In this document: positions 506-44,012 of the stretch, one piece after another
Layout: each line of letters opens with the position of its first letter
Numbering within the stretch: the first letter of the stretch is position 1
Virus record (IMG/VR): IMGVR_UViG_3300014656_003390
Span: 1,780 to 65,779 of that record
DNA from: a virus
Taxonomy: Duplodnaviria > Caudoviricetes
Direction: 5' to 3' (one strand)
DNA: 64,000 bases
Translations under genes and position numbers: made by a program
Notes under the pieces: model-generated
Seen by the model: the letters and a program-made list of their open reading frames with translations, nothing else
What the model was told of the DNA's origin: nothing
The model's database searches: none

Positions 506-507
506 AG

Positions 508-925: not shown

Positions 926-979
926 AGGATAAAAGAAATAATGATAGATAATGGTGAAAGGAGGAATTAAAAAAATATA

Positions 980-1420: not shown

Positions 1421-1454
1421 TTGATATTAATTTTATATTAATTATATAATAAAA

Positions 1455-25064: not shown

Positions 25065-25101
25065 ATATATCAACACTAAATATTGTATTAATATAATTAG
25101 A

Positions 25102-25779
25102 ATGAATTGGATTAAAGAAATAGCAAAGATAGTTCTAAAAGAAGAAATTAAAATATTGGAAAGCCAAATTCCAAAGAAAAATTTTTATCAAGAATATTAT
25201 AATAATAAATATCCGAAAACTGATATTTTCTATAAAAGAACAGATAAACTTGGGACGATTAATATTGATGTTAGACAATTCTTAAATTTTAATAATTGTC
25301 TCTTTCCGAAAATAAATGGAGAAAATGATAATGAAAAAGTAATTAATTCATTAATATGGGTTATAGATAATATAAAATATATTCCTGATAAAACAGAATA
25401 TGGACTAGAAGAATATTGGGCATATGGATATGAAACTTTTAATTATAAAAAAGGTGATTGTGAAGATGGAGCAATATTACTTTATGATATTATGAGAGCA
25501 AATGGAATACCTGCTTGGAAATTAAGAATTAATGCTGGTTTAGTTAATAATCCTTTGAATCAGAAAGTAGGACATTGTTTTGTTGTATATTATAATGAAG
25601 AAACAAATAAATGGCAATTATTAGATTGGTGTTATTATCCATCAAAACTAGGTTTAGAATTTAGAGACGAATATAAAAATGAAGCAAATTATATAACTAC
25701 TTGGTTTAGTTTTAATGAAAATTTTTCTTATAATAAAGATATAAAAGATATTCCTAAAATGGAAAATATAACTAATTGA
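25102..25779 (+). CDS. Transglutaminase-like cysteine protease
   Basis: GDCEDGAIL (Cys), GHCF (His), LLDW (Asp) triad. Confidence 0.85.
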   Translation: MNWIKEIAKIVLKEEIKILESQIPKKNFYQEYYNNKYPKTDIFYKRTDKLGTINIDVRQFLNFNNCLFPKINGENDNEKVINSLIWVIDNIKYIPDKTEYGLEEYWAYGYETFNYKKGDCEDGAILLYDIMRANGIPAWKLRINAGLVNNPLNQKVGHCFVVYYNEETNKWQLLDWCYYPSKLGLEFRDEYKNEANYITTWFSFNENFSYNKDIKDIPKMENITN

Positions 25780-26902
25780 ATAATTGTTTGATACTTTCTA
25801 TTATTCTATTTGCTGAGTTATTCCAAGTAAAGATGGTAATAAATTCTTTTGCTTTTAATCCCATTTCTTTTACTCTATCTTGATGTTCATAACACCATCT
25901 CATTTTCTTTCGTAAATCGTTTATAACTATTGTAGCCCATTCTATTCCTTCATACATAATATCTTCTTTTACTTCTGATAGTTCTGCATCTACAAACAAT
26001 GCACAAGTACTATCCATATGCTCTATTTGACCACCATAATTAGTTGCTATAACAGGTAATCCACATGCCATTGCCTCTCCAGAACCTAAATCAAATGCTT
26101 CTGAACGAGTAGGACATATATATGCATCACCTAAATTATAGAAATCACATAATTTATCATATGGTACATTTTCTAGCATAACTTGTATGTCTGCTTTATT
26201 TGCTTGTAGATTTAATTGTTGTACTGATTGCTGTAACATTTGTGGACTTATATAAGCTGGGTTTAATCTTACTATAAGCCTTATGTTATCCTCCATTGTA
26301 AATTCTTCGTTAAATGCTTTAATCATATATTGAACTCCTCCTCTATCCCAAGAAGAACCTCTCCATCCCTTATTACAAACAAATGTAAATTTATCATGTT
26401 TCTTTTCTAATGATTTAAATATAGATAAGTCTACTCCATGCGGAATTACTTTTATTTTATCTAAAATTTCTAATCCTTGGGTCGATGTCATAATTTCTTT
26501 TTCATAATCGTTTATAGTATTTTCAATTGCTTGCTTTGTATGTTCACTCGGGACAAATATCAAATCAATCTTCGGATTTAACATCTCATCAATGTAACTT
26601 AGAGGGACTTTACTTCCTTCCCAAACACAATAAGCACAATTAATTCCTGTTCCTAAAAACAACTTCCACATATGAGGAGTTGTTATAATTATTTGAATAT
26701 CATTTTCTTTTCCTTGTTTTGTAATCATATCTAATTCATTATCATTAACCATTCTTTCCCAACCTTGCATTAGTTGAGTTGATAATTTTACATCTGCTAT
26801 TTTATATAAAGCATTCACTAAATTTCTTGTATGACTAGCATATCCAGTAGTCGAGAATATATCTCCTATGATATTTATTTTTAATTTTTTATCTTCATTC
26901 AT
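25772..26902 (-). CDS. GT-B (GT4-like) glycosyltransferase
   Basis: VIPHGVD, RSEAFDLGSGEAMACGLPVIATNYGG. Confidence 0.9.
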   Translation of the reverse strand: MNEDKKLKINIIGDIFSTTGYASHTRNLVNALYKIADVKLSTQLMQGWERMVNDNELDMITKQGKENDIQIIITTPHMWKLFLGTGINCAYCVWEGSKVPLSYIDEMLNPKIDLIFVPSEHTKQAIENTINDYEKEIMTSTQGLEILDKIKVIPHGVDLSIFKSLEKKHDKFTFVCNKGWRGSSWDRGGVQYMIKAFNEEFTMEDNIRLIVRLNPAYISPQMLQQSVQQLNLQANKADIQVMLENVPYDKLCDFYNLGDAYICPTRSEAFDLGSGEAMACGLPVIATNYGGQIEHMDSTCALFVDAELSEVKEDIMYEGIEWATIVINDLRKKMRWCYEHQDRVKEMGLKAKEFITIFTWNNSANRIIESIKQLFN

Positions 26903-27747
26903 TTTATTCCATACACTCCTTCAAGTAAATCTTTTGACTTTCCACTATTAGTCAAAAGAAATTTATTATATTCTTCTGCAGCTCTTAACATCTGATTAGC
27001 AAGAGTATTGCCACAAGTTTTTTGATATAAACTTCTAAATCCAGCAAAATCTTTTATAAAACAATGTCCACCTGCTCCTCTTCCACCTTGATGTTCGGCA
27101 ATAAGATGTGTTCTTCCAACTCTTTTATCTGCTCCCATCATATAAATCAACTTATCATAATCAATTTTATTTGCCTTTGCTACTTCATAAAAAGTATTCA
27201 TAGTTAAAACTTTTATATAAAACCAACAATTAATCATATATTTTACAAATTCACTTTCTTTACAATCACATATTTCTTCAAATGGTGAGCAAGGTAAAAT
27301 TCTCATAACTTTTCCTGCAACATGTTTAGATTTACTTGTTGTTCCGATGATATTCATCATTGGATTAGCAACATCGTATTTTGCTGTTGCTTCTGTTAAT
27401 AATTCCGGACTATGAATTACATATCTATCTGGAAACATCTTTTGCATTTTTTCTGTTGTGCCAGGCATTATTGTTGATTTGATAACAATTATTTGCCCTT
27501 TTCTTGTTGCTTTAATTGCATCTATGATAGCATTATCATCAACTTCAACACATTCTTGCCATCGCTTACTTATACTTGGAGTTGGCACAGCTATAAAAAC
27601 AATGTCACAATCTTTTATTTTTGCTTTATTCTTTTTATATTTGTCAATATCATAACGAATAACCTTAAATCCTCTTTCTTCAAAGTTGTCTGCATAGTTA
27701 GAACCTATCCAACCAATACCAATAAATCCAATTTTATTTGTTATCAT
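26899..27747 (-). CDS. UDP-glucose/GDP-mannose 6-dehydrogenase family
   Basis: GFIGIGWIG, IAVPTP, IKSTIMPGTT, PELL, GAGGHCFIKD. Confidence 0.9.
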   Translation of the reverse strand: MITNKIGFIGIGWIGSNYADNFEERGFKVIRYDIDKYKKNKAKIKDCDIVFIAVPTPSISKRWQECVEVDDNAIIDAIKATRKGQIIVIKSTIMPGTTEKMQKMFPDRYVIHSPELLTEATAKYDVANPMMNIIGTTSKSKHVAGKVMRILPCSPFEEICDCKESEFVKYMINCWFYIKVLTMNTFYEVAKANKIDYDKLIYMMGADKRVGRTHLIAEHQGGRGAGGHCFIKDFAGFRSLYQKTCGNTLANQMLRAAEEYNKFLLTNSGKSKDLLEGVYGIK

Positions 27748-27884
27748 ATAACTCCTAAATTTAGTTCTGTTCCTTTTAATTTAAATAAATAATGCATTTC
27801 CTTAATTGCATGTTTTCCTAACTCTTCATAATTATTAAATTCTTTTCCACAATTTTTACATATCATTTCTCTTTTCTTTTCCAT
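27744..27884 (-). CDS. C2H2-type Zn finger protein (46 aa)
   Basis: ICKNCGKEFNNYEELGKHAIKEMH; not in the track. Confidence 0.65.
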   Translation of the reverse strand: MEKKREMICKNCGKEFNNYEELGKHAIKEMHYLFKLKGTELNLGVI

Positions 27885-27898
27885 AATTAAATTACTCA

Positions 27899-28738
27899 TC
27901 ATTTGAATTGCTTCCTATAAGTTTCTAAAAAGTCTCCTTTTTCTTTATATATTTTTTGACAAAATCTACTTAACAAATCATGATTAGTTTGTAATCCATT
28001 TTGATATTGTTGTGTTCTTTCGCCCCCACTTGGAGTTGCTAAATGATAAGCAATAGCTCCTGTATTAATTCCAATTTTAAATCCTTCGAGAATTGCTCTA
28101 AAACTAAACCATTGTTCTTCTCTAAAACTACAAAAGCCAATATTATCTTCATATTTAACTTTTTGATGAACTTCCTTTTTAATTAATGCCATACTTCTAA
28201 AATTTACACTTGGTATAATTTCTTTTTCTATATACTCCATTCCACATTCATCACCAAAATATATTATCTCTCCTTTATCATTTAATCGAACATCACTTAT
28301 GAATGGTTTAACATACTTCGTTGAGCGTTTTATAAATGGTATTGCACAATGAGGAACTAAACAACCTGCAATATCATATCCTTGGTCTAATGTATCACAT
28401 AGTCTTTCAAGAAAGTCTGGTTGTAAAAGATTATCATCATCTAATCTTAAAATACAATCCCCATTCCCGACTTCTATTATTCTATCAACTATTATTTGTC
28501 TCAATCTTGTAACTCCATAAGCTATATCATTTCTCCAAATAGTAACACAGTGGTTTTCAAGTTTCAGTCTATTTACTATTGCTTGAATGAAGTTAAAATT
28601 TTGTATTGAAACACCACTTCGGTCATCCATAATATATAAATCCCAATCTTTATGAGTTTGTGTTCTTAAACTCTGAAGTAATAAAGCAACTTCGCTTGGT
28701 CTATCCTTTGTACATAACATGATATCTATTTTATGCAT
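27899..28738 (-). CDS. GT-A (GT2) glycosyltransferase
   Basis: MLCTKDRP, IMDD, LRLDDD. Confidence 0.85.
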   Translation of the reverse strand: MHKIDIMLCTKDRPSEVALLLQSLRTQTHKDWDLYIMDDRSGVSIQNFNFIQAIVNRLKLENHCVTIWRNDIAYGVTRLRQIIVDRIIEVGNGDCILRLDDDNLLQPDFLERLCDTLDQGYDIAGCLVPHCAIPFIKRSTKYVKPFISDVRLNDKGEIIYFGDECGMEYIEKEIIPSVNFRSMALIKKEVHQKVKYEDNIGFCSFREEQWFSFRAILEGFKIGINTGAIAYHLATPSGGERTQQYQNGLQTNHDLLSRFCQKIYKEKGDFLETYRKQFK

Positions 28739-30030
28739 ATTTTTCTTCTAACCTCTTTATCAATTTCTTCTCTTAGTCTTTTTAAATTTTTATTACTTAA
28801 TTCATTCGTCCTAACATTACTACAATCTTGTTTGTCAAATCCTCTATAAAAACTATCTTCAGTTGCATATCTTGGCTTATTAAAATATAAACCATTATAC
28901 TCCCATTTATAATCTTTAAACTTTTTGGATGGAATAGCATTATCATATATCTTACTACCAGGGTATGGAGTTATTAAATTAAAATCAAAATCATTTGGTT
29001 TATTTTTTAAAAGCCAATCTTTTGACATCATAATATCTTCAAAAGTTTCATCTGGAAACCCAAGCATCATAAATGCTTCATAATGTATTCCTGCATCTTT
29101 TATAAGTTTGCATGCTTTTGAATTTTCTTCACTTGTTGTTCTTTTATTTATATTTTTCAACATTCTATCAGACCCACTCTCAATACCTGTACAAAGTTTT
29201 ACAAACCCAGCATCTTTTAACCATTGAACGCTTTCAGGATATTTACAAATCATATCGCTTCTAACAAACCCTCTATGTTGATATTTTCTTTTTGACAACA
29301 ACTTACACAATTCTTTTAGTCTTTTGATATTAATATTAATCTCATCATCATACCACATAAAACTTTCATATCCATACTTTTTATTTAATTCATCTAATTC
29401 TTCTAAAATTCTTGTTGGAGAGTGTGTTCTTGTTTTATTATACATTTCAATATCTCTCCCACAACAAAAAGTGCATTGAAATGGACATCCTCTTTGTGTC
29501 ATAATACATGTTGTATCTTTTCCTAGAAGACTATAATGATAACTTTTAATATCTATGAAATCTCTATTTGGTATTGGGACATCATCTAAATTTTTGATAA
29601 GATTACCTTTTTGCCATCCAGATTTAAACATATTACTTGTTTCTTCTCCTTCACCAGCAAATATAGTATCAAACACTTCTAAATCTTTTATATTGATATC
29701 TTCTATACCTTTTTCTCGTAATGAATATAAAGCACTTGAATGTGCACCACCAATCATAGTTTTTGCCTTTGGATTATATTGCTTTAATATATTAAATATC
29801 TTCATTATATAAGGGAATTGTGGAGTGGTAGAACTAAACCCAAACCATTCGTAATTATTGGTATAAGGAATTATATCTTCTGCTTTTTTTCCTGTTAAAT
29901 CAATAACATCTACCAATTTTCCTTCATTTCGTAGTTGAGTTGCCACTCTTAATATACCTATATTTGGAAATGTTTTTTCATTAATTAAAAACGGACTATT
30001 TGAAATTATTAATGCTATATCTTTTTTCAT
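28726..30030 (-). CDS. B12-binding radical SAM protein
   Basis: IGGAH; TQRGCPFQCTFC (CX3CX2C); GIESGS. Confidence 0.9.
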   Translation of the reverse strand: MKKDIALIISNSPFLINEKTFPNIGILRVATQLRNEGKLVDVIDLTGKKAEDIIPYTNNYEWFGFSSTTPQFPYIMKIFNILKQYNPKAKTMIGGAHSSALYSLREKGIEDINIKDLEVFDTIFAGEGEETSNMFKSGWQKGNLIKNLDDVPIPNRDFIDIKSYHYSLLGKDTTCIMTQRGCPFQCTFCCGRDIEMYNKTRTHSPTRILEELDELNKKYGYESFMWYDDEININIKRLKELCKLLSKRKYQHRGFVRSDMICKYPESVQWLKDAGFVKLCTGIESGSDRMLKNINKRTTSEENSKACKLIKDAGIHYEAFMMLGFPDETFEDIMMSKDWLLKNKPNDFDFNLITPYPGSKIYDNAIPSKKFKDYKWEYNGLYFNKPRYATEDSFYRGFDKQDCSNVRTNELSNKNLKRLREEIDKEVRRKICIK

Positions 30031-30134
30031 TTGAAATAATTTTGTGGAAAAGGAAAATATGCATCTGTCTCTGCATCATAATAACCTGAACCACAAACCA
30101 CAACTCCATTTTGTTTTAATTCTTTTTTATTCAT
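30027..30134 (-). CDS. Small ORF (35 aa)
   Basis: MNKKELKQNGVVVCGSGYYD...; ATGA overlap. Confidence 0.4.
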   Translation of the reverse strand: MNKKELKQNGVVVCGSGYYDAETDAYFPFPQNYFK

Positions 30135-30135
30135 T

Positions 30136-30489
30136 TTATATTCCTCTTATTAATCCCCTATTGTCGTAATGTTTTGGGTCTAATTTACTTATAATATATC
30201 TAAATTGTTTATACTTATTTGTTTTAAGCCAAAATGTAAACCAAACTGCATTCATATGAGGACTACAAACATTCACTTTATGATGTTGGTAGCATAAAGT
30301 AATTCCATTATTTACATCCCATCTTGTTAATTTAATACCTTTTGGTATTATATGATGAGCATGACAATTATTCTTTTCTATTTTCTTTTGGCATATTTGA
30401 CAAGTATAATTATCTCTTTCTTTAACTTTTAGTTTCCAAGCATTATCTAAGTCGCTTATTTCTTTTTTATTTGTTATTTTTTTTGGCAT
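30136..30489 (-). CDS. HNH endonuclease (NinG-like)
   Basis: RDNYTCQIC, HAHHII, RWDVNNGITLCYQHH. Confidence 0.8.
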   Translation of the reverse strand: MPKKITNKKEISDLDNAWKLKVKERDNYTCQICQKKIEKNNCHAHHIIPKGIKLTRWDVNNGITLCYQHHKVNVCSPHMNAVWFTFWLKTNKYKQFRYIISKLDPKHYDNRGLIRGI

Positions 30490-30710
30490 TTTTTCTCCAG
30501 TTCACTTATCAAATATTTTATAATTGGTATATCATCTGTTATATCTACAAATTTATATTTTGTATTAACATGGTAACTCATATACAATTTATTCTTGTCT
30601 ATCCAATAATTATTAACTTTACCTACCATTGTTTTTTCCATATTACTTTCGTCTGTTCTAATATAAGGAATGTTTTCTTCATTAAAAGGCATGGCTATCT
30701 CCTCCATCAC
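30474..30710 (-). CDS. Hypothetical protein
   Basis: Overlapping ORF in operon. Confidence 0.5.
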   Translation of the reverse strand: MMEEIAMPFNEENIPYIRTDESNMEKTMVGKVNNYWIDKNKLYMSYHVNTKYKFVDITDDIPIIKYLISELEKKCQKK

Positions 30711-31305
30711 AAGTTATTATTGCACCATTAATATGGCTAGCTTTATTTGAACAAAGAAATGTAACTATATTTGCTATATCTTCTGGTTCTCCTAGTGATA
30801 ACTTATTCTTTTGTGCAAATTCTTTTATTGATGGTTTAGTATTAATACACCCAGGACATATAACATTAAAAGTAATTCCGTCATGTTTTCCTGCAATTGA
30901 TTTCATAAATCCAATTTGTGCTGCCTTTGATGCAACGAAATATGGATTAGGTCCTTTCTCTTTTCCATAAAAAGAAGATATAGTAATAACTCTACCCCAT
31001 GTTCTATCTTTTGCTAAAAAGAAATCTGTCAGTAATTGAGTTATCCTATAATTTTTAAATATACAATCATCAGCATCTTCTCTTGCACATGTACCCATAC
31101 CACCAATATTATTAATTAAAATATCTACCTCTAATAATTTTGATAAATCTACCAAATCAAGTGCTCTCATTAAATCTTGTCCTTCTTCTCTACTCCAACT
31201 AATAACTTTAACTCCTTCTGCTTCTAATGCTTTTTTAATTGCTAATCCTATTCCATGACTCCCACCAGTTACAATTGCTTTCTTTCCTTTAAGATTTAAA
31301 TCCAT
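30682..31305 (-). CDS. Short-chain dehydrogenase/reductase
   Basis: TGGSHGIG, LINNIGG, YVASK, NVICPG. Confidence 0.9.
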   Translation of the reverse strand: MDLNLKGKKAIVTGGSHGIGLAIKKALEAEGVKVISWSREEGQDLMRALDLVDLSKLLEVDILINNIGGMGTCAREDADDCIFKNYRITQLLTDFFLAKDRTWGRVITISSFYGKEKGPNPYFVASKAAQIGFMKSIAGKHDGITFNVICPGCINTKPSIKEFAQKNKLSLGEPEDIANIVTFLCSNKASHINGAIITCDGGDSHAF

Positions 31306-32222
31306 TTTAATATCTCCTTTACTATTGTATCATTATCTAAACCATTTAATTTATCAATCATTTCTCTCTTTCCGTAATTTTGTATATAATCTTTTACTCC
31401 AAACCTTTTAAATCTTATTGAAATATTATTATTACATATAAAATCTGCAATTGAACTTCCTATACCACCACATTCTAAATGCTCTTCTAGTGTTATAACA
31501 TTTTTAAAATTTTTTAAATATTTTAATAATAATTTTTTATTTAAAGGTGCTATTCTATACAAGTCAATAACACCAACACTTTTTATTTCATTTAATCTTC
31601 TACTAATTTCTAATGCTTTATGAACCATAATTCCTGTAGCAATAATTATTACATCTCTACCTCCACCTTCTATTAATGATAAACCATCATTAAAATTATT
31701 TTTCATATTATTGTATATTAAAGGCAACGGATGGTGGTCAAACTTAACATAGGATAAATGTGGTCTATTATAAAATATATTTGAAAGTTCTGCTAAACAT
31801 ATCGTATCAGCAACATTATAAATATTCATATTAGGAATTGTTTTTAATATTCCAATATCTTGAATTGAATGATGTGTTGGTCCTTCGTGACAATAAGAAT
31901 AACCAGCACCTATACCTATAATTGTTACTGGTAGATTTTTTACTCCCAAATCTAAACTTATTTCTTCAAAACATCTTAAAGTAACAAAGGGTGATATACC
32001 ATGAACAAATACTTTCTTTCCACATGTTGCTAATCCTGCAGCAACTCCAATTAAATTTTGTTCTGACGGTCCAATATTTATTAATTGTTCTGGAATATTT
32101 TCTCTAAACTTCTTGAATGTTCCTGCATTTTGGTCTCCAAGAAGTAAGATTACATCTTTATCTTTTAAAGCATTCTTATAAAGTTCTTCAAACATTGCAT
32201 CTCTCATATCATTATATATCAT
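31296..32222 (-). CDS. Transketolase, C-terminal (pyrimidine-binding) subunit
   Basis: NIGPSEQNLIGVAAGLA, GPTHHS, ITLEEH. Confidence 0.9.
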   Translation of the reverse strand: MIYNDMRDAMFEELYKNALKDKDVILLLGDQNAGTFKKFRENIPEQLINIGPSEQNLIGVAAGLATCGKKVFVHGISPFVTLRCFEEISLDLGVKNLPVTIIGIGAGYSYCHEGPTHHSIQDIGILKTIPNMNIYNVADTICLAELSNIFYNRPHLSYVKFDHHPLPLIYNNMKNNFNDGLSLIEGGGRDVIIIATGIMVHKALEISRRLNEIKSVGVIDLYRIAPLNKKLLLKYLKNFKNVITLEEHLECGGIGSSIADFICNNNISIRFKRFGVKDYIQNYGKREMIDKLNGLDNDTIVKEILKWI

Positions 32223-33040
32223 TCTAATTCTCTCCTTGCAATTTCCAATTGTTCTCCTTTTGGTATTCCGTGATGCCATGCAGGATTACCTTCCATATAT
32301 GAAATACCTTTTCCTTTTATAGTATTTGCAATAATTACCTTTGGTTTATTTAATTTTGAATATTTAAAGACTTTAAGACAGGTAAGAATTTCATTAAAAT
32401 TGTGTCCGTTACATTCTATAACATCCCAACCAAACGATTTCCATTTTTCTACTAATCCAAGTCCGTCTCCAACATAAGTTGATGTTAATTGATGAGTTCC
32501 AAATTTGTTATTATCAACAATCACAATCAAATTACTTAACTTTTGTGCAGAAGCAAACATAACTCCTTCCCAAATACTTCCTTCATTGCATTCTGTATCT
32601 CCTAGCATAACATATGTTTTATAATCTTTTTTATCTAATTTTGCAGCAAGAGCAATTCCACATCCTAATCCTAATCCATGTCCTAGTGAACCACCTGTCA
32701 TTTCAATGCCAGGAGTATGATAATCTGAATGTTCAGGCATAGATGTTTGTCCATATTTTTCTAAATCTGCAATAGTAAAGAAATTATTGTCAGCTAATAT
32801 TGTATATAATGCAAGAGGGCAATGCCCTTTACTATAAATCAATCTATCCCTATCTGGAGAGTTAATTGTCTTTGGAGTTACATTTATAATACCACCATTG
32901 TAAAGAGAAAGTAATAATTCAACACTTGACAATGCCCCACCAAGATGTGCCTGCCCGGTATTTATGGCAACATCAAATAGTTTTTTTCTAACCCATCTGG
33001 CTTTTTCTATTAATTGTTTTTCGTTAAGCGTTTTTTTCAT
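32219..33040 (-). CDS. Transketolase, N-terminal (ThDP-binding) subunit
   Basis: HLGGALS, DRLIYSKGH, GGSLGHGL, GDTECNEG, KGKG. Confidence 0.9.
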   Translation of the reverse strand: MKKTLNEKQLIEKARWVRKKLFDVAINTGQAHLGGALSSVELLLSLYNGGIINVTPKTINSPDRDRLIYSKGHCPLALYTILADNNFFTIADLEKYGQTSMPEHSDYHTPGIEMTGGSLGHGLGLGCGIALAAKLDKKDYKTYVMLGDTECNEGSIWEGVMFASAQKLSNLIVIVDNNKFGTHQLTSTYVGDGLGLVEKWKSFGWDVIECNGHNFNEILTCLKVFKYSKLNKPKVIIANTIKGKGISYMEGNPAWHHGIPKGEQLEIARRELE

Positions 33041-36722: not shown

Positions 36723-37099
36723 TCTATAATCACATCCCTTACATCATTAAATGCAGCAGATATATAACTTTCACAAGCAGCATCTATAATTATACTATCT
36801 TCACTAAACCAGCCACCATGAGTTATTCTACCACTTCTAAATACAACATCTCCTGCTTCTAAATCAAAGTCTTCTACTTCTCCTGTATCAATATTTTTCA
36901 TTCTGTATTTTGATTTACCTTGTAAGACATACATAACTTCAGCATATGGATGCCAATGATTACCAAGTAGTTGTTCACCTTTTTTTATTTTTAATATTTT
37001 CATATTCTTAACTGCTAATTCTCCATTTATAATTTCAAATATGCATCTTCTTTCGTCTTCACTTACTAATTTTGCTTTTCTAATTGTTACGCCATTCAT
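36719..37099 (-). CDS. Cupin (sugar 3,5-epimerase/isomerase, WxcM-C/RmlC-like)
   Basis: GNHWHP...EVMYV...ITHG. Confidence 0.7.
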   Translation of the reverse strand: MNGVTIRKAKLVSEDERRCIFEIINGELAVKNMKILKIKKGEQLLGNHWHPYAEVMYVLQGKSKYRMKNIDTGEVEDFDLEAGDVVFRSGRITHGGWFSEDSIIIDAACESYISAAFNDVRDVIIE

Positions 37100-37100
37100 T

Positions 37101-37268
37101 TTAATAAACTTTTTGAGTATTTCCTCCAAATTGAGATTTTATATTTAAATCTACTTCCTGTTTAAGTTCTTCTTTAAATTTATCATCTTCTCCTGTTGCT
37201 GATACAATATACCATTTTATATATGCTACCTTTGGTTCTATTTCACATATGTATATTATTAAATTCAT
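37101..37268 (-). CDS. Small ORF (55 aa)
   Basis: Fills the gap; ATGA overlap with the upstream gene. Confidence 0.4.
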   Translation of the reverse strand: MNLIIYICEIEPKVAYIKWYIVSATGEDDKFKEELKQEVDLNIKSQFGGNTQKVY

Positions 37269-37819
37269 TTTCCAAATGCTCCTGTCGGTACTTCAATTAA
37301 TAAAGTTGACAACCCCTGGTTAGCCATATCTAATGCATATTTATAACTTGGTATTACATCCTTTTCATTCTTAATTTTTATTACTTTAACATTCTTTAGC
37401 ATTTTTTTTAATCCTGTCGTATAATCTCCTGTATGCTGTAATCCTCCATTCATTGGATATTTACTTCCAATTTGAGTTCGTATTATAACTCCAGGATAAA
37501 ACTCTCCTTTACTCATATCCTCTATTTTATCTAAATGATTTACTAACTGATTAATAGCGCATATTAAAAAATCAATTCTCGGAAATATTGTTATAGGTAT
37601 AAATCCTTCTAATGATAACCCAATACTTAATCCCATTTGAGTATCTTCAAAGACAGGCATTTCTATTTTCTTTTTATCTAAAATATTCTTTAAACTTCCG
37701 TATATTGGACTACCCTCATAAATAACTGTTTGTCCTAGGAAAACTGTATTTGTATCTCTTGCTAACATATCCATTGCCTTAACTAAATTTTGCTGATACT
37801 TTTTATTATTTATAGGCAT
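37265..37819 (-). CDS. 2-oxoacid dehydrogenase E1-beta-like subunit (short)
   Basis: VFLGQ, MPVFEDTQMGLSIG, NQLVNH, GLQHT. Confidence 0.85.
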   Translation of the reverse strand: MPINNKKYQQNLVKAMDMLARDTNTVFLGQTVIYEGSPIYGSLKNILDKKKIEMPVFEDTQMGLSIGLSLEGFIPITIFPRIDFLICAINQLVNHLDKIEDMSKGEFYPGVIIRTQIGSKYPMNGGLQHTGDYTTGLKKMLKNVKVIKIKNEKDVIPSYKYALDMANQGLSTLLIEVPTGAFGK

Positions 37820-38519
37820 TATAATCTCCTTGCGATTTAAATTTCTTTTTCTTAAATATTATCCATTCTCCTACTCCATAATGAGGATACACTCTATTAT
37901 AAGTATAATAAATACAATATTTATTTATAGGAAAACTTCTTTGACCCCATACTTCATATGTAGGAGTATTATTTGCAATACCATTATCCTCAATTATAAA
38001 AGTTATTGGTAAATCATGTCCTTTAGCATATTTAATTGCTTCATCAAAGCATCCCATTTCAGAAGCCATATCACCAACAAAGCACCAAACGTGTGGCATA
38101 TCCATACAAGTTCCTATTATTCCTTTTTCAACATCCATAGTAGACAGATTAACATTTCTCCATCCGTTATCCCAATTTCTTTTAATTCCCATAGCGGTTC
38201 CTAAAGCAATTGGAATACAACCTCCGACAATAGCACTTGAAAATATTTTATACTTCGCTGAATTAATATGACTTGAATTTGCATTAACTATAATTTCATT
38301 CATAAGCCAACTCCAATCTTCAGATTTAAGTAAAGCATGATAATGACTTCGATGTGTTGTAAATACCCAATCATTATCTTTTATTTTTTTGAATATTTTA
38401 ATAAGTTGGTCTTCATTTCCACCACTTAAATGAACAGGTCCATAAGTATTTCCTTCTTTATATTTTGCTATTACTTCTTGTTCAAAGTTAATTAAATCTT
38501 GTTTTGTTATTTGTTTCAT
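37806..38519 (-). CDS. 2-oxoacid dehydrogenase E1-alpha-like ThDP subunit
   Basis: GPVHLSGGNE, THRSHYH, AIVGG, GDMA...EDN. Confidence 0.85.
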   Translation of the reverse strand: MKQITKQDLINFEQEVIAKYKEGNTYGPVHLSGGNEDQLIKIFKKIKDNDWVFTTHRSHYHALLKSEDWSWLMNEIIVNANSSHINSAKYKIFSSAIVGGCIPIALGTAMGIKRNWDNGWRNVNLSTMDVEKGIIGTCMDMPHVWCFVGDMASEMGCFDEAIKYAKGHDLPITFIIEDNGIANNTPTYEVWGQRSFPINKYCIYYTYNRVYPHYGVGEWIIFKKKKFKSQGDYNAYK

Positions 38520-38836
38520 ATTTTATAACTATCCTCATCATCATGATGTGTTGATGCTTCTATAAATTTACAATATGGAGTTACAGAAGTGAATTTGTGA
38601 AGTGTAAAGGGAGGAATTCTAAATGAGTCTCCCTTTTCTAAGATTATACTGTATCCATCGACTACTAAATGTAACTCTCCTTCTAAAATAAAAAATGTTT
38701 CATCTTTATTTTTATGATAATGATACTTTCCTTTTGATGACCATTTATCTTTAAAACATATCATTACTTTACTACAATATAATTCATTATTTAATAACCA
38801 CATTTCACTTCCCCAAGATTTAATTACTAATTTCAT
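38516..38836 (-). CDS. Cupin-fold sugar isomerase
   Basis: KSWGSE, YHYHKNKDETF, HKF, EASTHH. Confidence 0.75.
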   Translation of the reverse strand: MKLVIKSWGSEMWLLNNELYCSKVMICFKDKWSSKGKYHYHKNKDETFFILEGELHLVVDGYSIILEKGDSFRIPPFTLHKFTSVTPYCKFIEASTHHDDEDSYKI

Positions 38837-39252
38837 TTTTCTTTTATTCCTGTTAGCCAAGATGATGACTGAATTTTATCTCCTAAATCATTAAGCATCA
38901 TAATTCCCAATTCATTACAAACTTTTGTTTCTCTATTATCTTTAATATCTCCACCATTTGCAAATATAAAAGTATTTTCTGGAAATGACTTAACTAAAAA
39001 TCTTAATGTTTCACAAACACTTCTATCTTTATCTATTGAAATAAATACTTTATCCACTCCTTTAATGTTTGTCATAATCTTAATTCTCTCATCTTCATTC
39101 ATAAAACTACCTCCTTTCTTTAATTTTGCTTGTTCATCATTATTAACTATTACCCATAACTCATTACTATAAGATTTTGATATTTTTAAATATTCTAAAT
39201 GCCCAATGTGAAGTGGGTCATAATATCCCGAACAAATAATTATACAATCCAT
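38833..39252 (-). CDS. Cytidylyltransferase-like nucleotidyltransferase (HxGH)
   Basis: SGYYDPLHIGH, FANGGD, SSS. Confidence 0.85.
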   Translation of the reverse strand: MDCIIICSGYYDPLHIGHLEYLKISKSYSNELWVIVNNDEQAKLKKGGSFMNEDERIKIMTNIKGVDKVFISIDKDRSVCETLRFLVKSFPENTFIFANGGDIKDNRETKVCNELGIMMLNDLGDKIQSSSWLTGIKEK

Positions 39253-40187
39253 GTTTCTACCCCATGAATACTGAAATTAAAATCAATAATTGCATTATAT
39301 TTATTTTTTAAAGCATCAATTAAATCTTTTCTATTTTCTGGTTTAACGAAAAATATAAAATGTCCTGCTTGTCCAGAACCACATAGTTTTCCTCCTTCTG
39401 CTCCATTCTTTAATGCCCAATTATATAAAATATCAATTCTTTTTGAAGAAGTAAATTTATTTCTTTTTAATTCCCAATTTGCTCTGAGTAGACTTGGTAT
39501 ATTTTTAACATCAGATTTTAGTAAAGCATCTCTCATTCTATAAGCCAATCCTTTTATATCTGCTGTTCTTTTCATTTCATCTTTATGTTTTTCACTATGT
39601 TCTCTTAATTCTTTATGAATATCTCTTCCTTCTTTAGAACCACCAATATAACATAAAACAAAATGTTCATTCAATTCTCTTATAAAAGAATACTTTAATT
39701 TTAATGGATAAACAGTTTGATAATCTTTTCCGAAGTCCATGAAATTAAATCCTCCAAGAGTTGTTGCATATTGGTCTTGCCAACCACCTTCTTTAATTGA
39801 TGTTTCAATTTCATATGCTTCTTTTATTAAATCATAATCATTAGTTCTTCCTCCATGAAGTTCATATAAAAGACGCAACAATAAAATTACAAAACTTGAA
39901 CTACTACCTAAACCACTTCCTGGAGGAATATCATTATAATAAATTAAGTTAAATCCTTTGGTTGGTTTAAAATATTCTATAACTTTGCTTGCTAATATTT
40001 CTGTACTATTTAATTCTTTATCGTTGATATAAATCTTTTTATCTTTTCTTTCTTCTATTGTCATGTGACAGAATTTATTAATTGTTGAACTAATGACTGC
40101 TCCACCATATTTTTCAAATATATAATTTAAATCAGTTCCTCCTCCAGTAAACGAAATCCTAAGCGGTGCTATTCCTCTAATTCTCAT
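39240..40187 (-). CDS. hddA: GHMP kinase, heptose-7-phosphate kinase family
   Basis: APLRISFTGGGTD, PPGSGLGSSSS, GWQDQY, GGKLCGSG. Confidence 0.85.
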   Translation of the reverse strand: MRIRGIAPLRISFTGGGTDLNYIFEKYGGAVISSTINKFCHMTIEERKDKKIYINDKELNSTEILASKVIEYFKPTKGFNLIYYNDIPPGSGLGSSSSFVILLLRLLYELHGGRTNDYDLIKEAYEIETSIKEGGWQDQYATTLGGFNFMDFGKDYQTVYPLKLKYSFIRELNEHFVLCYIGGSKEGRDIHKELREHSEKHKDEMKRTADIKGLAYRMRDALLKSDVKNIPSLLRANWELKRNKFTSSKRIDILYNWALKNGAEGGKLCGSGQAGHFIFFVKPENRKDLIDALKNKYNAIIDFNFSIHGVETWIV

Positions 40188-40473
40188 TTTCTTTTTTCCA
40201 TACTTGTTTTACTTTTTTTACTAAATCTGTATCCCTTGAGTTATGCCATATATCTTTTGGAAAATATTTTCTTGTATCTATAACTTTGTCTGCCCATTTT
40301 CTAAGTATATCCATTGTTTCTTTTGTAGAATATTTTTCTCCAATAGCTATTGCTTCATATTTTATAACTAAATTTGGGTCATTTGTTCTTCCATTCAAAC
40401 CTTTTATAAATTGTGCCAGAGCTACACTTCTTATATTTCCCCCATCACATATACATAATACTTTTGTTGTCAT
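40177..40473 (-). CDS. Small LMW-PTP-like phosphatase
   Basis: VLCICDGGNIRS = CX5R(S) P-loop. Confidence 0.7.
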   Translation of the reverse strand: MTTKVLCICDGGNIRSVALAQFIKGLNGRTNDPNLVIKYEAIAIGEKYSTKETMDILRKWADKVIDTRKYFPKDIWHNSRDTDLVKKVKQVWKKENEN

Positions 40474-41738
40474 TTCTTTTCTCCTATCAACAACTGATTT
40501 GAAAATAACCAATCCTGTGGTACATCTTTAACTAATATTCCATAACTACTTATTTTATCTATCCACCATTGTTTATCATGAAATTGTTTATGAGTGCTAT
40601 CTGCTTCTAAGTTTGGGTCTCCTTCAAATGGTATTGAGAATAAAAAATTATCACTATATGAAAGAATATTTTTTAATGCTTTGTCAAGTTGTTCATCTGT
40701 TAAATGTTCCAATATATCTATACATAAACAAACTTTATATTTCCATTTGTTCTTATTTTTTATTTTTGTAATATCTCCTTCACAAACATCCATTACTCCA
40801 CTATTAGTTCTAAAGGCATTATCAACTGCAAATTTACTAATATCAAATCCTAAATAATCATAATCATAACTAGCAATTGCAAACCCGAACGGTGCTCGTC
40901 CACAACCAAATTCTACAAAATTACATTCTCTATCATTATTATCAAAATAATTTATCCATTGTTTTGCCATAAGAAAATGTTTAACTTCTAATCCTCTATT
41001 AGCAAAATAAAATTCATCTTTATTAATTTCATATCTATCACAAATTTGTTTTGGTAATTCAACAGGATTAATTTGTTTAGTTGGATATAAACCAAGCAAA
41101 TGAGCCATCTTCCATTGTTTCAAGAAGTCCTGATTATGAATAATGCTATCCGATGCATGTTGTTTATATCTTTTTAAAATATAATCCATATATTCTACAG
41201 GCAAATGTCCAAGATGCCAAATAGTAGTATCTAAACAAGCACCTTTTAATTCTCCTTCTAATACTGGATGACTATGAAGTGGATATCCTTTTGCTTCTGA
41301 TATTTTAAATAACCTTCCTGGAACAACATGCACAGGACGAGTGTTATCTTCATGCCCTAAATCTCCAATGAAGTGTCTCATCTTAACATTATAAATTCCA
41401 GGTTCTCTTTCTGATATGAATTTCTTTATTTTTTCAATTCCTTCTTCTTCTAATATTTCATCTTCGTCTAAAACCAAACACCAATCATTAGGATAAGCTT
41501 GTTTTAAATAATCTAAATATTTCTGTCTACATTTTCCATTTGTTGCCATATCATTATCATCCCAGCCATTATAATGAACTTCTTGATTGTCTGGTAAATG
41601 TTTTAAGCACGGACTTATTGAAAAGCTATAATCGCTTGTAAAATATAAAATTTTATCTGCATCTTTTACACTATCAAAACACATATCAAGAAAATGTTGT
41701 TTTCCAGGTCCCATGATAACTATTACCAATTTATTCAT
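40470..41738 (-). CDS. Glycosyltransferase-methyltransferase fusion
   Basis: N-terminal LVLDEDE (DxD) and IWHLGH; C-terminal EFGCGR, GFDIS, IDILEHL. Confidence 0.85.
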   Translation of the reverse strand: MNKLVIVIMGPGKQHFLDMCFDSVKDADKILYFTSDYSFSISPCLKHLPDNQEVHYNGWDDNDMATNGKCRQKYLDYLKQAYPNDWCLVLDEDEILEEEGIEKIKKFISEREPGIYNVKMRHFIGDLGHEDNTRPVHVVPGRLFKISEAKGYPLHSHPVLEGELKGACLDTTIWHLGHLPVEYMDYILKRYKQHASDSIIHNQDFLKQWKMAHLLGLYPTKQINPVELPKQICDRYEINKDEFYFANRGLEVKHFLMAKQWINYFDNNDRECNFVEFGCGRAPFGFAIASYDYDYLGFDISKFAVDNAFRTNSGVMDVCEGDITKIKNKNKWKYKVCLCIDILEHLTDEQLDKALKNILSYSDNFLFSIPFEGDPNLEADSTHKQFHDKQWWIDKISSYGILVKDVPQDWLFSNQLLIGEKK

Positions 41739-42589
41739 TTCTTCTCCTCCCTTAAATAAAATTCAACAAGTCGTTTAATTCCTTCTTCTAACTTTATTTT
41801 TGGTTCATATCCGAATCTTTTTATTTTACTTATATCAATATTTACTTGTTGAGGTTGTGCTATTTCTGGTTCTTTCAGTTCTATATCCATATGACACTCT
41901 CCTATTTGGTCTGCAATTTCATGAGAAATTAGTTGAGCGACATCAATTAAATTTCTACTATCTTCTCCACTAATATCATAATCTGTATTTTTTGCTTCTT
42001 CCCAATTATTTAATAAACAAAATATCCCATCTACAAAATCACTAATGTAAGTAAAATCAAGTGTTTTATGACTATCACCACATAAAACTAAATATTCTCC
42101 TTTTAAAGCATTAATAACCCAAGTTGTTAAAAGTCGAGTTGTTATATCTTTACAAGGAGCATATACTGTGCTTGGCCGAATTATAATATAATCTATCCCA
42201 TAACAATTGTGGTATGCTTTACATAAATGTTCTCCATACTTTTTACTTGCTGTATAAGGATTTTCTTCTTCACTTAAAACTCTTGATGAAGAAAAATAAA
42301 CTATTTTCTTTATATGATTTCTTCTACAGTATTCTAAAACATGTTCTATGCCATCTGAATTTTCAAATGCTAAATCTGGGTTGCTTATTGTATCTTTTAT
42401 TTTACAATTACTTGCTAAATGAAACATAATATCGGCATTTAATTGTTCATCAATAACGGATAAATAATCTGTACTAATATCACTATTTCTCTTATCAACT
42501 TCTAAAATACATTCGCATCCTTGCTTATCTAATTCTCTTTTTAAATATTGTCCAATCATACCACATGAACCTGTAATAATATACTTCAT
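41735..42589 (-). CDS. NAD-dependent epimerase/dehydratase (extended SDR)
   Basis: TGSCGMIG, FSSS, PYTASK, RPSTVY, LDFTYISD. Confidence 0.9.
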   Translation of the reverse strand: MKYIITGSCGMIGQYLKRELDKQGCECILEVDKRNSDISTDYLSVIDEQLNADIMFHLASNCKIKDTISNPDLAFENSDGIEHVLEYCRRNHIKKIVYFSSSRVLSEEENPYTASKKYGEHLCKAYHNCYGIDYIIIRPSTVYAPCKDITTRLLTTWVINALKGEYLVLCGDSHKTLDFTYISDFVDGIFCLLNNWEEAKNTDYDISGEDSRNLIDVAQLISHEIADQIGECHMDIELKEPEIAQPQQVNIDISKIKRFGYEPKIKLEEGIKRLVEFYLREEKK

Positions 42590-43755
42590 CTTGTAATCTC
42601 CACAATTAATTTATTCCAGTCAGCACCAACCTTATCCCAATTATATAATTTATTTACTTTATCTATTCCAATTTTTCCATAATGTTCTCTTAATTCAGGA
42701 TTATCATATAAGAGTGTTAATGCTTTTGCTCCACTTTCATCATCCATAATTGCTCGTTCTACATTCCAACTTCCTGTTAATTCTGTTGCTATTTTTATAG
42801 GAATACCACACACACCATCCTCAACTAATAATTCCTGTGTTGTAGCATAATCAGTTACTATAGGTGTAATGCCACAAGCCATTGCTTCAATAGTAGGAAT
42901 ACCAAATCCTTCTCCAGATGTTGTTAAGAAGAATACATCCATAACATTATAAACTTCATTCATTTGTTTATAATCGAAACCATTAAAGAATGTCATTCCA
43001 GAAAACATAACCCTATTATTTATTTTATATCTGTTAATCAATTGAATTATATCTATTGGTGCTGCTACATCATATGGGTCAGTATGTAAAAATAAAATAG
43101 CATCTGGATGGTCTTTAGCAAATAGAGCAAATGATTTAATTAATCTATCAGGCATCTTTCTTCCTTGATTTCTTTGAACAACACCAACAACAAACTTTCC
43201 CTGAAGTCCCCACTTTGCTTTTATCTTTTCTTTTTCTTCTTTTGGTAATGGAAAATAAATCTTTGTATCTATAGCATGTGGAATATATTTTGTATCAAAT
43301 CCATAACATTCTTTTACTTGCCTTTGTCCATGCCGAGCCATAGCAACAGGACAATTAACTTTCTTTAAAATATTTTCACATTGAAGAGGTAATCCTCCAC
43401 CACCATCGCTTGGGTAATAGAATATAGTTTTTGCAGGTGAAAAATCAATATTCATTAACCATGGCCAACACATAAAAGTATCAAGTAAAATTCCAAACAC
43501 ATCTATATTATATTTCTTTATGTATGGTTGAATTAAATTTTGAGCATATGGAACATGACTTCCACCTAATATAGTAAAATTAAATTTTGTTCCATCTTTA
43601 AGAATTAATCCAGGAGGTATTTCTTGACCAACATAATTATGGCCTAGAAAATAAACATTATGTCCTGCTTCTGCAAGCTTATTACATATATTCCAAGATA
43701 TTGTCGCATAACCAGTACAACAAAGAGGAGAGTCGCTTAACCAAAGAATGTTCAT
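42586..43755 (-). CDS. GT-B (GT4-like) glycosyltransferase
   Basis: IPHAID, RNQGRK, GEGFGIPTIEAMACG. Confidence 0.9.
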   Translation of the reverse strand: MNILWLSDSPLCCTGYATISWNICNKLAEAGHNVYFLGHNYVGQEIPPGLILKDGTKFNFTILGGSHVPYAQNLIQPYIKKYNIDVFGILLDTFMCWPWLMNIDFSPAKTIFYYPSDGGGGLPLQCENILKKVNCPVAMARHGQRQVKECYGFDTKYIPHAIDTKIYFPLPKEEKEKIKAKWGLQGKFVVGVVQRNQGRKMPDRLIKSFALFAKDHPDAILFLHTDPYDVAAPIDIIQLINRYKINNRVMFSGMTFFNGFDYKQMNEVYNVMDVFFLTTSGEGFGIPTIEAMACGITPIVTDYATTQELLVEDGVCGIPIKIATELTGSWNVERAIMDDESGAKALTLLYDNPELREHYGKIGIDKVNKLYNWDKVGADWNKLIVEITR

Positions 43756-44012
43756 CTGAACATCACTGGCTTATTACCACTATACATTTTTGTTTGTCTA
43801 TCAAAATCATTTTGATATAATATATCTTCTTGTGTTAATTTACATCCACTTGTAAAAGTTAAAGACATTCCACTAACACTTAATTTAAAATAACAATCCT
43901 GAAATTGTTCTGCAAAAATTCTTGGAATTGTAATAGCATAACTATCACCAGTTTTATTGTTAATAGTAGTCTTTCTTATTTTATATTGTATCCCAAATCC
44001 TCTATATGCCAA
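43752..44012 (-). CDS. AbrB/SpoVT-like transcription regulator
   Basis: SYAITIP motif; first gene of the operon; GGTGA SD before a TTG start. Confidence 0.55.
   Translation of the reverse strand: MAYRGFGIQYKIRKTTINNKTGDSYAITIPRIFAEQFQDCYFKLSVSGMSLTFTSGCKLTQEDILYQNDFDRQTKMYSGNKPVMFR

Follow-up and report, generated by a model that had tools for sequence, protein, structure and literature searches.

An 18-kb operon predicted to make a heptose-type glycan in a tailed virus from groundwater

Virus-encoded glycosylation is well documented in giant viruses, on the DNA of T-even phages and in a few mycobacteriophages. Among the last, Che8, Corndog and Myrna reportedly have virions that are glycosylated by phage-encoded glycosyltransferases (GTs). 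Here, we describe an operon for glycan synthesis in a mid-sized tailed virus known from a single-contig record flagged as linear (IMG/VR IMGVR_UViG_3300014656_003390). The stretch analysed, called the window below, covers 64,000 of the 65,779 bases of this record, and the operon lies at 25772-44012 of it. The operon comprises 18,241 bases, or 27.7% of the record. The virus thus devotes more than a quarter of its genome to glycosylation, in line with a preliminary description of the same DNA, which had assigned the operon over a quarter of the window. The operon is real, native and viral. Judged by homology to known enzymes, its likely product is a C-branched, methylated 6-deoxyheptose, for which virion proteins are tentatively proposed as the acceptor.

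The mycobacteriophages resemble this virus, whose virion glycosylation is a proposal, in their siphovirus-type particle and their soluble phage GTs, with or without a methyltransferase. They use two to a few genes and the nucleotide sugars of the host, whereas the present operon has about 23 genes, including a pathway for the de novo synthesis of an exotic sugar. Autonomous glycosylation has been described in giant viruses, for example, in PBCV-1 (A064R, A111/114R) and for the fibril sugars of the Megavirinae (PMC9614988, PMC7826918, PMC10117803). These viruses share with the operon virus-encoded nucleotide-sugar synthesis and soluble cytoplasmic GTs, including a GT-methyltransferase fusion, but have genomes of 0.3-1.2 Mb and eukaryotic hosts. 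To our knowledge, sugar tailoring by thiamine diphosphate (ThDP) enzymes or B12-binding radical S-adenosylmethionine (SAM) enzymes is not known in giant viruses, and we know of no report of such tailoring enzymes in a virus.

In phages, a kinase/HAD enzyme, a cytidylyltransferase and a GT-B enzyme place heptose on 5-hydroxymethylcytosine (5hmC), according to a preprint (10.1101/2023.12.21.572611). Phage DNA glycan clusters (5mYOX/ThyS-associated GTs; same preprint) thus follow the same heptose logic of kinase/phosphatase, cytidylyltransferase and GT-B as the operon, but their defining hydroxymethyl-pyrimidine-forming enzymes were not found in the window virus. GTs are also reported to be common in groundwater viruses of the bacterial candidate phyla radiation (CPR) and of DPANN archaea, where they have been read as ‘cell-surface modification’ genes (PMC11310336). 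That report concerns the same habitat and probably the same host group, but covers single GT genes in general terms. The preliminary description had presented complete exotic-sugar pathways as a trait of giant viruses, a framing that is too strong in view of mycobacteriophage virion glycosylation, phage heptose-DNA clusters (10.1101/2023.12.21.572611) and the common GTs of CPR/DPANN viruses (PMC11310336).

Among cells, GDP-6-deoxy-heptose pathways serve the capsules and O-antigens of Campylobacter jejuni, Yersinia pseudotuberculosis and Burkholderia pseudomallei, with the enzymes GmhA, HddA/WcbL, GmhB, HddC and DmhA/WcbK, C3/C5 epimerases and C4 reductases (PMC10680097, PMC7949155, PMC4691232). 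The viral kinase and 4,6-dehydratase have their closest solved relatives here, and cupins and short-chain dehydrogenases/reductases (SDRs) follow the dehydratase. Unlike these pathways, the viral operon is without the SIS isomerase, the HAD phosphatase and HddC, and has a cupin, a CX5R protein and a cytidylyltransferase-like nucleotidyltransferase instead; it adds ThDP, B12-radical SAM and methyltransferase steps, and it is virus-borne. The two-subunit ThDP enzymes AviB1/AviB2 and Pau11/Pau12 have been proposed to add an acetyl branch at C-4 that is then ketoreduced (PMC4753412). As with these enzymes of avilamycin and paulomycin synthesis, and with YerE for yersiniose, the viral E1alpha/E1beta-like pair adjoins a 4,6-dehydratase and a candidate ketoreductase. 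Its subunits, however, are shortened (237 and 184 aa) and their substrate would be a 6-deoxyheptose. The literature searched contained no account of such an operon, nor of the clade-wide conservation of an 18-kb heptose operon. As virus-encoded glycosylation, the operon is unusual in its genome share (27.7%), its substituted heptose route and its tailoring by ThDP and cobalamin radical SAM enzymes. This chemistry, including two-carbon ThDP branching, is unusual even among cells.

An island of this kind could be host DNA that misassembly had attached to a viral contig, since the sugar genes have cellular homologs and the record is linear and, by CheckV, 46% complete. Contigs from the groundwater run X1, which may be the source sample of the record, nevertheless cover 24900-31387 and 43300 to beyond 44899 with no differences, and bridge both junctions. 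A contig from a second study (X3) covers 25300-25976 and again bridges the tail-side junction. Depth is even across the junctions, and the same placement of the operon is repeated in independent assemblies from other samples. GC content and skew are continuous across the operon, with GC identical to that of the remaining virus genome. The tetranucleotide GATC, of which the whole genome has 12 copies where 154 are expected, is avoided everywhere outside the replication module at 45.9-55.4 kb, and the operon has none (34.8 expected). The misassembly test suggested in the preliminary description thus revealed no coverage break, bridged junctions and a composition that matches the virus. As far as present data reach, an assembly artefact is refuted, with negligible probability remaining.

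The GC content is about 28% and uniform along the whole window. A late module on the plus strand, from 2.6 to 25.8 kb, encodes a large terminase, a portal-MuF fusion, a major capsid protein, an HK97-gp10-like protein, a tail tube (PF18906), a tape measure and distal tail proteins. No tail sheath was matched among the virion proteins scanned. By its tail tube and tape measure genes, the virus is a tailed one of siphovirus type. Replication and nucleotide genes occupy the minus strand from 55.7 down to 44.1 kb (AAA_24/Sak4-like, dCMP deaminase, dUTPase-nucleotidase fusion, DnaE, ThyX, PD-(D/E)XK nuclease and primase). Between the two modules, and on the strand of the replication genes, sits the glycan operon, a series of 23 co-directional minus-strand open reading frames (ORFs) of 86-434 aa that runs from 44012 down to 25772. 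Neighbours mostly overlap by 4-14 nt, and four intergenic gaps of 105-192 nt contain mini-ORFs. Gene families were assigned from ORF calls and Pfam/NCBIfam profile searches, as listed below with the two flanking genes; identities are those of orthologs in L013, a contig of a related virus described further on.

44111-45076 (-): flank; primase-like gene, last of the replication module, upstream of the operon (profile)
43752-44012 (-): AbrB/MazE-like first ORF, 86 aa, possible regulator (weak match, PF04014 E 0.035, below cut-off)
42586-43755 (-): GT-B glycosyltransferase (GT1/GT4), 389 aa, soluble (PF00534 1.4e-17; 78% identical)
41735-42589 (-): extended SDR (RmlD/epimerase-like), 284 aa, candidate C4 reductase (profile matches)
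40470-41738 (-): 422-aa fusion protein whose N-terminal domain is GT-A-like and whose other part is a class I methyltransferase (PF13704 E 0.015)
40177-40512 (-): small CX5R(S) protein, probably 98 aa from an ATG at 40473, candidate heptose bisphosphate phosphatase (low-molecular-weight protein tyrosine phosphatase (LMW-PTP)/ArsC-like fold)
39240-40187 (-): GHMP kinase of the HddA/WcbL type (heptose-7-phosphate 1-kinase-like), 315 aa (NF049969 4e-62, below cut-off)
38833-39252 (-): cytidylyl/adenylyl-transferase-like nucleotidyltransferase, 139 aa, RfaE domain II-like (PF01467 family)
38516-38860 (-): metal-binding cupin, 114 aa, HxH...E...H motif, candidate sugar-phosphate isomerase/epimerase (motif and profile)
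37806-38519 (-): E1alpha-like ThDP subunit, 237 aa, with the GD...EDNG ThDP motif (motif and profile)
37265-37819 (-): E1beta-like subunit, pyrimidine-binding domain only, 184 aa (PRK09212 3.9e-10; 62% identical)
36719-37129 (-): cupin, 136 aa, wherever found a direct neighbour of the dehydratase, in viral as in cellular loci (profile)
35682-36722 (-): 4,6-dehydratase of the nucleoside diphosphate (NDP)-heptose type, 346 aa (7US5 2.6e-62)
34415-35689 (-): B12-binding radical SAM enzyme, 424 aa (profile)
33732-34418 (-): GT2 glycosyltransferase, 228 aa, soluble (profile and hydropathy)
33037-33735 (-): 232-aa protein with the fold of class I SAM methyltransferases, family unnamed, retained alongside the SDR in both viral and cellular modules (model pLDDT 94)
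32219-33040 (-): N-terminal (ThDP-binding) half of a split transketolase, 273 aa, absent from L013 (NF004559 6.6e-63)
31296-32279 (-): pyrimidine-binding and C-terminal half of the split transketolase, 327 aa (profile)
30682-31305 (-): classical SDR (FabG-like), 207 aa, candidate branch ketoreductase (profile)
30136-30489 (-): HNH endonuclease-like ORF, 117 aa (profile; 76% identical)
28726-30030 (-): second B12-binding radical SAM enzyme, 434 aa (profile)
27899-28738 (-): GT2 glycosyltransferase, 279 aa, soluble (profile and hydropathy)
26899-27747 (-): NDP-sugar 6-dehydrogenase-like protein, short form, 282 aa, without the C-terminal nucleotide-sugar domain (TIGR03026 2.2e-39)
25772-26902 (-): GT4 glycosyltransferase, 376 aa, encoded by the final operon gene, which runs convergently towards the late module; a hallmark of the clade (profile)
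25102-25779 (+): flank; transglutaminase-like cysteine protease whose 3' end overlaps the operon end by 8 nt (profile)

ORF calls and profile searches bear out the single antisense operon of the preliminary description, whose inventory of families was nearly exact. It had counted about 25 genes, where we find 23 ORFs plus a few mini-ORFs, and had left the HNH and AbrB-like ORFs unlisted. Its five GTs, one of them fused to a methyltransferase, are present, but four are clear and the fifth is the weakly scoring GT-A-like domain of the fusion; orthologs of that fusion in L013 and in a second related contig, L032, match PF00535 and Methyltransf_23. None of the transferases has a transmembrane (TM) segment. 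The dehydrogenase stands, but is shortened to 282 aa; it retains its catalytic Cys motif (GGHCFIKD), and its L013 counterpart is equally long. The supposed phosphatase has no family match, but does have an invariant CX5R(S) loop and an LMW-PTP/ArsC-like model fold. The claim of a complete exotic-sugar pathway with five transferases is supported by family matches, the functions being homology-based.

The pathway is read as a 6-deoxyheptose route because its kinase and dehydratase are closest to solved heptose enzymes. The best solved relative of the dehydratase is 7US5, a GDP-D-glycero-D-manno-heptose 4,6-dehydratase (2.6e-62, 214 bits), whereas GDP-mannose dehydratases reach about 1e-24 and at most 90 bits, and dTDP-glucose dehydratases also lie far below 7US5. 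For the kinase, the best solved relatives are heptose-7-phosphate kinases, with matches from 1e-45 to 1e-50 (4N3O, 1e-50; WcbL 4USK/4USM, about 1e-46; and 3K85). The nucleotidyltransferase, from the cytidylyltransferase-like family PF01467, resembles stand-alone RfaE-domain-II-like proteins, and the 114-aa cupin has a full metal motif and resembles sugar isomerases. Several points weigh against a heptose route. The GmhA SIS isomerase (PF13580) is absent from the whole record, in a search whose positive control matched; the nucleotidyltransferase is not of the HddC (NTP_transferase) family; the kinase and transketolase are absent from L013; and all enzyme assignments score below equivalog cut-offs. 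There was likewise no SIS match among the operon ORFs scanned against Pfam, and no HAD protein of the GmhB phosphatase type in the operon. Statements of absence for enzyme families, here and below, apply to this record alone. Its estimated completeness of 46% would mean that it may be incomplete, while the 61-68 kb size of its relatives suggests that it is near full length. The matches of the dehydratase, kinase, nucleotidyltransferase and cupin, taken with the missing SIS, HAD and HddC enzymes, therefore point to a non-canonical NDP-heptose route that feeds a 6-deoxyheptose pathway. In this route, the CX5R protein, the small nucleotidyltransferase and the metal cupin are candidates for the GmhB, HddC and GmhA slots, the cupin as a candidate substitute only.

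The CX5R protein, 98-111 aa long depending on the start codon, has no Pfam match, and its alignment shows invariant C, G, R, S and WAD residues. The closest structural neighbours of its AlphaFold model (pLDDT 91) are arsenate reductases (ArsC) and LMW-PTPs, with 80-88 of 98 residues aligned at Z 6.2-7.5, a middling value that is interpreted solely alongside the motif. Foldseek returned nothing for the model at E <= 0.001, and an LMWPc cluster look-alike at rank 14 (score 0.86) is a lead only. The gene adjoins the kinase in two viruses, the window virus and L032, and the order CX5R protein, kinase, nucleotidyltransferase is conserved in the latter. On the modelled fold, the protein is a candidate heptose bisphosphate phosphatase. 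The 232-aa protein has a predicted class I SAM methyltransferase fold (pLDDT 94; Foldseek TM about 0.5, a generic fold match only). Its family has invariant ETG, DAHF and HDF motifs and no Pfam entry, and searches against the PDB by sequence and profile gave nothing significant.

The two-subunit E1-like ThDP pair adjoins the 4,6-dehydratase, and the two occur together in viral as well as cellular loci. Such an arrangement, with a reductase also close by, is reminiscent of AviB1/AviB2 and Pau11/Pau12, and it is this analogy that makes a C-branched, methylated 6-deoxyheptose the likely product. In the mechanism proposed, the operon would be expressed together with the replication genes and act wholly in the cytoplasm. 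To make a nucleotide-activated heptose, the split transketolase could act as an optional supplier of sedoheptulose-7-phosphate, which the metal cupin may isomerise; the HddA/WcbL-like kinase would phosphorylate C1, the CX5R protein of LMW-PTP fold would remove the 7-phosphate and the small nucleotidyltransferase would activate the sugar. The heptose-type 4,6-dehydratase would then yield a 4-keto-6-deoxy intermediate, to be epimerised and reduced by cupins and SDRs. A two-carbon branch would be added by the E1alpha/beta pair, as proposed for AviB1/AviB2, and reduced by the classical SDR. Further tailoring of the sugar, by methylation or otherwise, may fall to the protein of methyltransferase fold, the methyltransferase part of the fusion and both B12-radical SAM enzymes, and the short dehydrogenase would supply a uronic-type sugar. 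Finally, the five soluble, virus-specific GTs would assemble an oligosaccharide, most likely on one or more virion proteins before or during assembly, resulting in a glycan-coated particle.

The operon is not confined to one record. Two further data sets yielded a relative of 67-68 kb (contigs L013, L014 and L025) in which gene content and order are the same and aa identity is 47-83%. Its operon also lies between the replication and tail modules: it has tail genes at one end, and PolB, a PD-(D/E)XK nuclease, additional ORFs and a transglutaminase-like gene at the opposite end. Cassettes of variant content occur in all sampled relatives, namely L015 (63 kb, Nanoarchaeota metagenome-assembled genome (MAG) bin), L026, L027 (61 kb), L032 and G002, a 45-kb genome with terminal repeats. 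The last was considered as a cassette-free control virus and ruled out, as it carries five GTs. In L013, L026 and L027, the cassette ends with GT2-GT4 and is convergent on the tail module. The terminal GT4 family comprises 405 proteins at E <= 1e-10, and its 120 best homologs are all on contigs of 66 kb or less. The 232-aa family comprises 163 proteins at E <= 0.001, the best members of which are on contigs of 68 kb or less, and genes of the two families often share contigs. Judged by gene content and order, the operon is conserved across a viral lineage, and the cassette marks a large uncultured virus clade, with its hallmark GT4 present on over 100 contigs. No phage record matched the operon by Megablast, and a kinase-based search for related loci in viral contigs found none.

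The CX5R protein, kinase and split transketolase are gains of the window virus relative to L013, and because L013 lacks both the kinase and the transketolase, these two may be accessory. Accessory enzymes of this kind would fit an auxiliary role, in which the operon would enhance the sugar-nucleotide or pentose-phosphate metabolism of the host, or yield another product such as a glycosylated small molecule or a glycolipid, without a specific acceptor in the virus. They could feed carbon in a host of minimal metabolism, and DPANN hosts are without many pathways (PMC11310336). Nevertheless, a defined acceptor and product are implied by the conservation of five transferases that include a clade hallmark, and the gene order conserved across relatives argues for a single integrated pathway, so an auxiliary role is improbable.

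Parts of the pathway are shared with cells. A genome search with the 232-aa family gave eight loci, five of which have neighbours homologous to the viral dehydratase (up to 66% identity), E1alpha, E1beta, the classical SDR and RmlD-like SDRs. A homolog of the 136-aa cupin is found in three of these five, as is the kinase, also in three. The five loci belong to a Woesearchaeota MAG, a Pacearchaeota MAG, a 163-kb ‘archaeon’ contig, a Saccharibacteria MAG and a 284-kb ‘Planctomycetia’ contig. The Woesearchaeota locus is taken as a cell-surface glycan cluster because GT2s, GT4s, a GT9 heptosyltransferase and a PMT_2 membrane GT-C accompany the module. This locus (L021) also has an NTP_transferase-CBS-GHMP fusion, where the virus has its small PF01467 nucleotidyltransferase. 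In the cellular loci with this sugar module, no homolog of any of the five viral GTs appeared at E < 1e-5, and by this comparison the GTs appear to be virus-specific. As the module occurs in MAGs of Woese-/Pacearchaeota and Saccharibacteria, ultra-small episymbionts may well have a surface sugar that is as yet undescribed, for whose identification the compact, soluble and expressible viral gene set offers a handle. In the Saccharibacteria (CPR) MAG and the 284-kb contig, which has low GC (L020 and L022), the module includes the dehydratase, E1alpha/beta, the methyltransferase fold, an SDR and the kinase; the sugar may be common to ultra-small bacteria and archaea, or these contigs may be mis-binned.

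A DPANN archaeon is the probable host. Woese-/Pace-/Nanoarchaeota provide the best cellular homologs as well as the MAG bins into which relatives fall, relatives carry PolB and PCNA, GC is low and the source is groundwater. A weak hint comes from GATC, which is depleted in the Woesearchaeota and ‘archaeon’ loci (L021 and L024; observed/expected 0.22 and 0.31) and not under-represented in the Saccharibacteria or ‘Planctomycetia’ loci.

Membrane components bear on the question of the glycan's acceptor. By hydropathy, the operon proteins have no hydrophobic 19-mer typical of a TM helix, the lone window above 1.6 lying inside the E1alpha-like enzyme, and no flippase- or polymerase-like multi-TM protein is encoded on the coding strands of the window. 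Wzx (Polysacc_synt), WecA/AglH-type (Glycos_transf_4) and STT3/AglB families are absent from the whole record, as is an integrase (PF00589), with positive controls matched and the record possibly incomplete. These negatives agree with the earlier impression that the operon has no flippase, polymerase or membrane GT, which had been held to argue against O-antigen-type conversion of the host. Conversion of the gtrABC/Wzy type is excluded, as there is no membrane GtrA, GtrB, Wzy or Wzx and no integrase. The preliminary description had gone on to favour a soluble acceptor, which is not established: soluble GT2/GT4 enzymes normally also act on lipid-linked intermediates at the inner membrane face, and the sugar core is homologous to surface-glycan modules.

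The host envelope consequently stays a serious rival, if a rather unlikely one on balance, because the sugar core is homologous to DPANN surface-glycan clusters with a membrane GT-C. Remodelling would proceed by soluble GTs that work on the membrane's inner face and extend lipid-linked intermediates of the host (dolichyl-phosphate), after which the host flippase and AglB/GT-C would put the altered glycan on the S-layer or on lipids. This could block superinfection, keep progeny off dying cells or alter attachment to the partners of DPANN cells. TM-free GT2/GT4 enzymes commonly use such lipid-linked acceptors, and the operon is co-oriented with the early replication genes and directly downstream of them. 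The core is up to 66% identical to modules in cellular surface-glycan clusters, such as that of the Woesearchaeota MAG (GT2/GT4/GT9, PMT_2 GT-C), and cassette content differs among relatives, like that of O-antigen loci. The GTs of CPR/DPANN viruses have also been interpreted in terms of cell-surface modification (PMC11310336). On the other hand, no priming transferase, flippase, polymerase, oligosaccharyltransferase (OST) or integrase was found in the record, so this would not be classical lysogenic conversion. Moreover, the viral GTs differ from cellular ones, and 28% of the genome is a heavy investment in a cell that is soon to lyse.

Viral DNA, the second soluble acceptor named in the preliminary description, is weakly supported. 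Here, a heptose-type sugar would be put on a hydroxymethylated pyrimidine, with the same enzyme logic as in the phage precedent, where a kinase, a phosphatase, a cytidylyltransferase and a GT-B enzyme lead to mono-/di-heptosyl-5hmC (10.1101/2023.12.21.572611). ThyX and the replication genes adjoin the operon; in the vicinity are a dCMP deaminase, the dUTPase-nucleotidase fusion and a weak match to DUF1599 (‘nucleotide modification’); and the last GT4 has a weak GT4-conflict match. However, a ThyA-type hydroxymethylase (PF00303) and a C5-methyltransferase (PF00145) are absent from the record, with positive controls matched, and no Tet/JBP domain occurs among ten replication and early-gene proteins scanned. 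ThyX (canonical by Pfam), dCMP deaminase and dUTPase amount to an ordinary dTTP supply for a genome of 72% AT, and the near-total avoidance of GATC (12 against 154 expected) argues that the DNA is exposed to restriction, not globally shielded. Five GTs and about 15 tailoring enzymes also far exceed known DNA-glycan clusters. Hypermodification of DNA is accordingly improbable. As separate observations, GATC is avoided by both the window virus and L025, and in L025 three DNA methyltransferase genes (382-3556; one weak C5 match, two N6/N4) adjoin PolB, whereas the window has none.

Virion proteins, the acceptor we tentatively prefer, would fit a fully soluble machinery with no membrane, priming, flippase or OST component and no integrase, as well as virus-specific GTs and the precedents in mycobacteriophages and giant viruses. 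The virion proteins themselves have an excess of the tripeptide Ser-Gly-Thr (SGT). Across their 6,848 aa, it is found 21 times where per-protein shuffles predict 3.7, and none of 300 shuffles reached 21; the remaining proteins, 13,096 aa in total, contain it once. No other tripeptide in the virion proteins deviates as strongly (z 9.2, against 5.9 for the next), and virion homologs of eight relatives have a 3.5-8.5-fold excess. Six of the 21 motifs are in a 371-aa virion-module protein without a family match (8656-9771, plus strand), which contains three copies of a unit of about 22 aa ending ...GS-V-M/V-I-SGT-S-x-P-x-W/F-RGIGS.

Other observations weigh against the virion as acceptor. The SGT excess is partly general, amounting to 1.8-2.9-fold in the virion proteins of lambda, PhiF1, HK97 and SPP1 (lambda, 10 against 3.4 expected; PhiF1, 10 against 4.6). 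Three of the sites fall in one internal repeat and two in LamG motifs. The operon is on the early/replication strand, away from the late genes, and in cells the homologous sugar modules form part of clusters for envelope glycans. Because the SGT excess is only about 2-fold above the lambda/PhiF1/HK97/SPP1 background, it is not treated as proof of a virion acceptor, and the motif is no more than a suggestive, indirect lead. Across the acceptors, virion proteins come first, short of an even chance, followed by the host envelope; viral DNA is improbable, and other products are at least as probable as DNA.

The heptose-type glycan operon with a virion-protein acceptor is, as a whole, the best explanation that we can offer, and is held with less than even confidence. 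A broader version is possible but doubtful, namely, autonomous protein glycosylation in an archaeal (DPANN) tailed virus, where a siphovirus-like clade of 45-68 kb would coat its particles, via a non-canonical heptose route, with a self-made C-branched, methylated 6-deoxyheptose glycan that mimics a host surface sugar. If true, no archaeal tailed virus before this one would have had autonomous protein glycosylation to its name, and particles could adhere, by such a glycan coat, to the same partner cells as their DPANN hosts.

Several minor features accompany the operon and its surroundings. In the head module, between the portal-MuF and capsid genes, 9771-10484 (plus strand) encodes a protein with a Laminin_G_3/concanavalin-A-like lectin domain (2e-18), which may be a carbohydrate-binding decoration protein. 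The transglutaminase-like gene borders the operon in both viruses at opposite ends. In the window (25102-25779, plus strand) it is convergent and at the tail-side end, and in L025 (8155-8832) it directly precedes the first GT on the operon strand; its product could be a lysin or a protein-modifying partner. The 4,6-dehydratase gene of L032 (9822-11315) has a product of 497 aa with a faint HNH match, which suggests an intein or an inserted endonuclease domain. The HNH ORF of the operon (30136-30489) matches L013:11398-11763 in position inside the operon, which is unusual for a freely mobile homing endonuclease. The gap at 27748-27898 (minus strand), between GT2 and the dehydrogenase, holds a zinc-finger-like mini-ORF of about 45 aa (CxxC...HxxxxxH), and the gaps at 30490-30681 and 37130-37264 possibly hold mini-ORFs too, in keeping with the annotation of relatives.

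Upstream of the first ORF, at about 44107, is a TTTAAATA box. TATA-like TTTAAATA boxes were considered as promoter markers and set aside, as 36-45 occur per strand in this AT-rich genome, which is too common to define promoters. The record has no terminal repeat at its ends. A near-identical element of about 30 nt, GCAGA-R-AATTCAAGGGGTGGGG-R-AATGAAA, is found at both ends (60-115 and 65660-65690), directly before an ATG, and is probably a repeated early promoter/ribosome-binding site unit.

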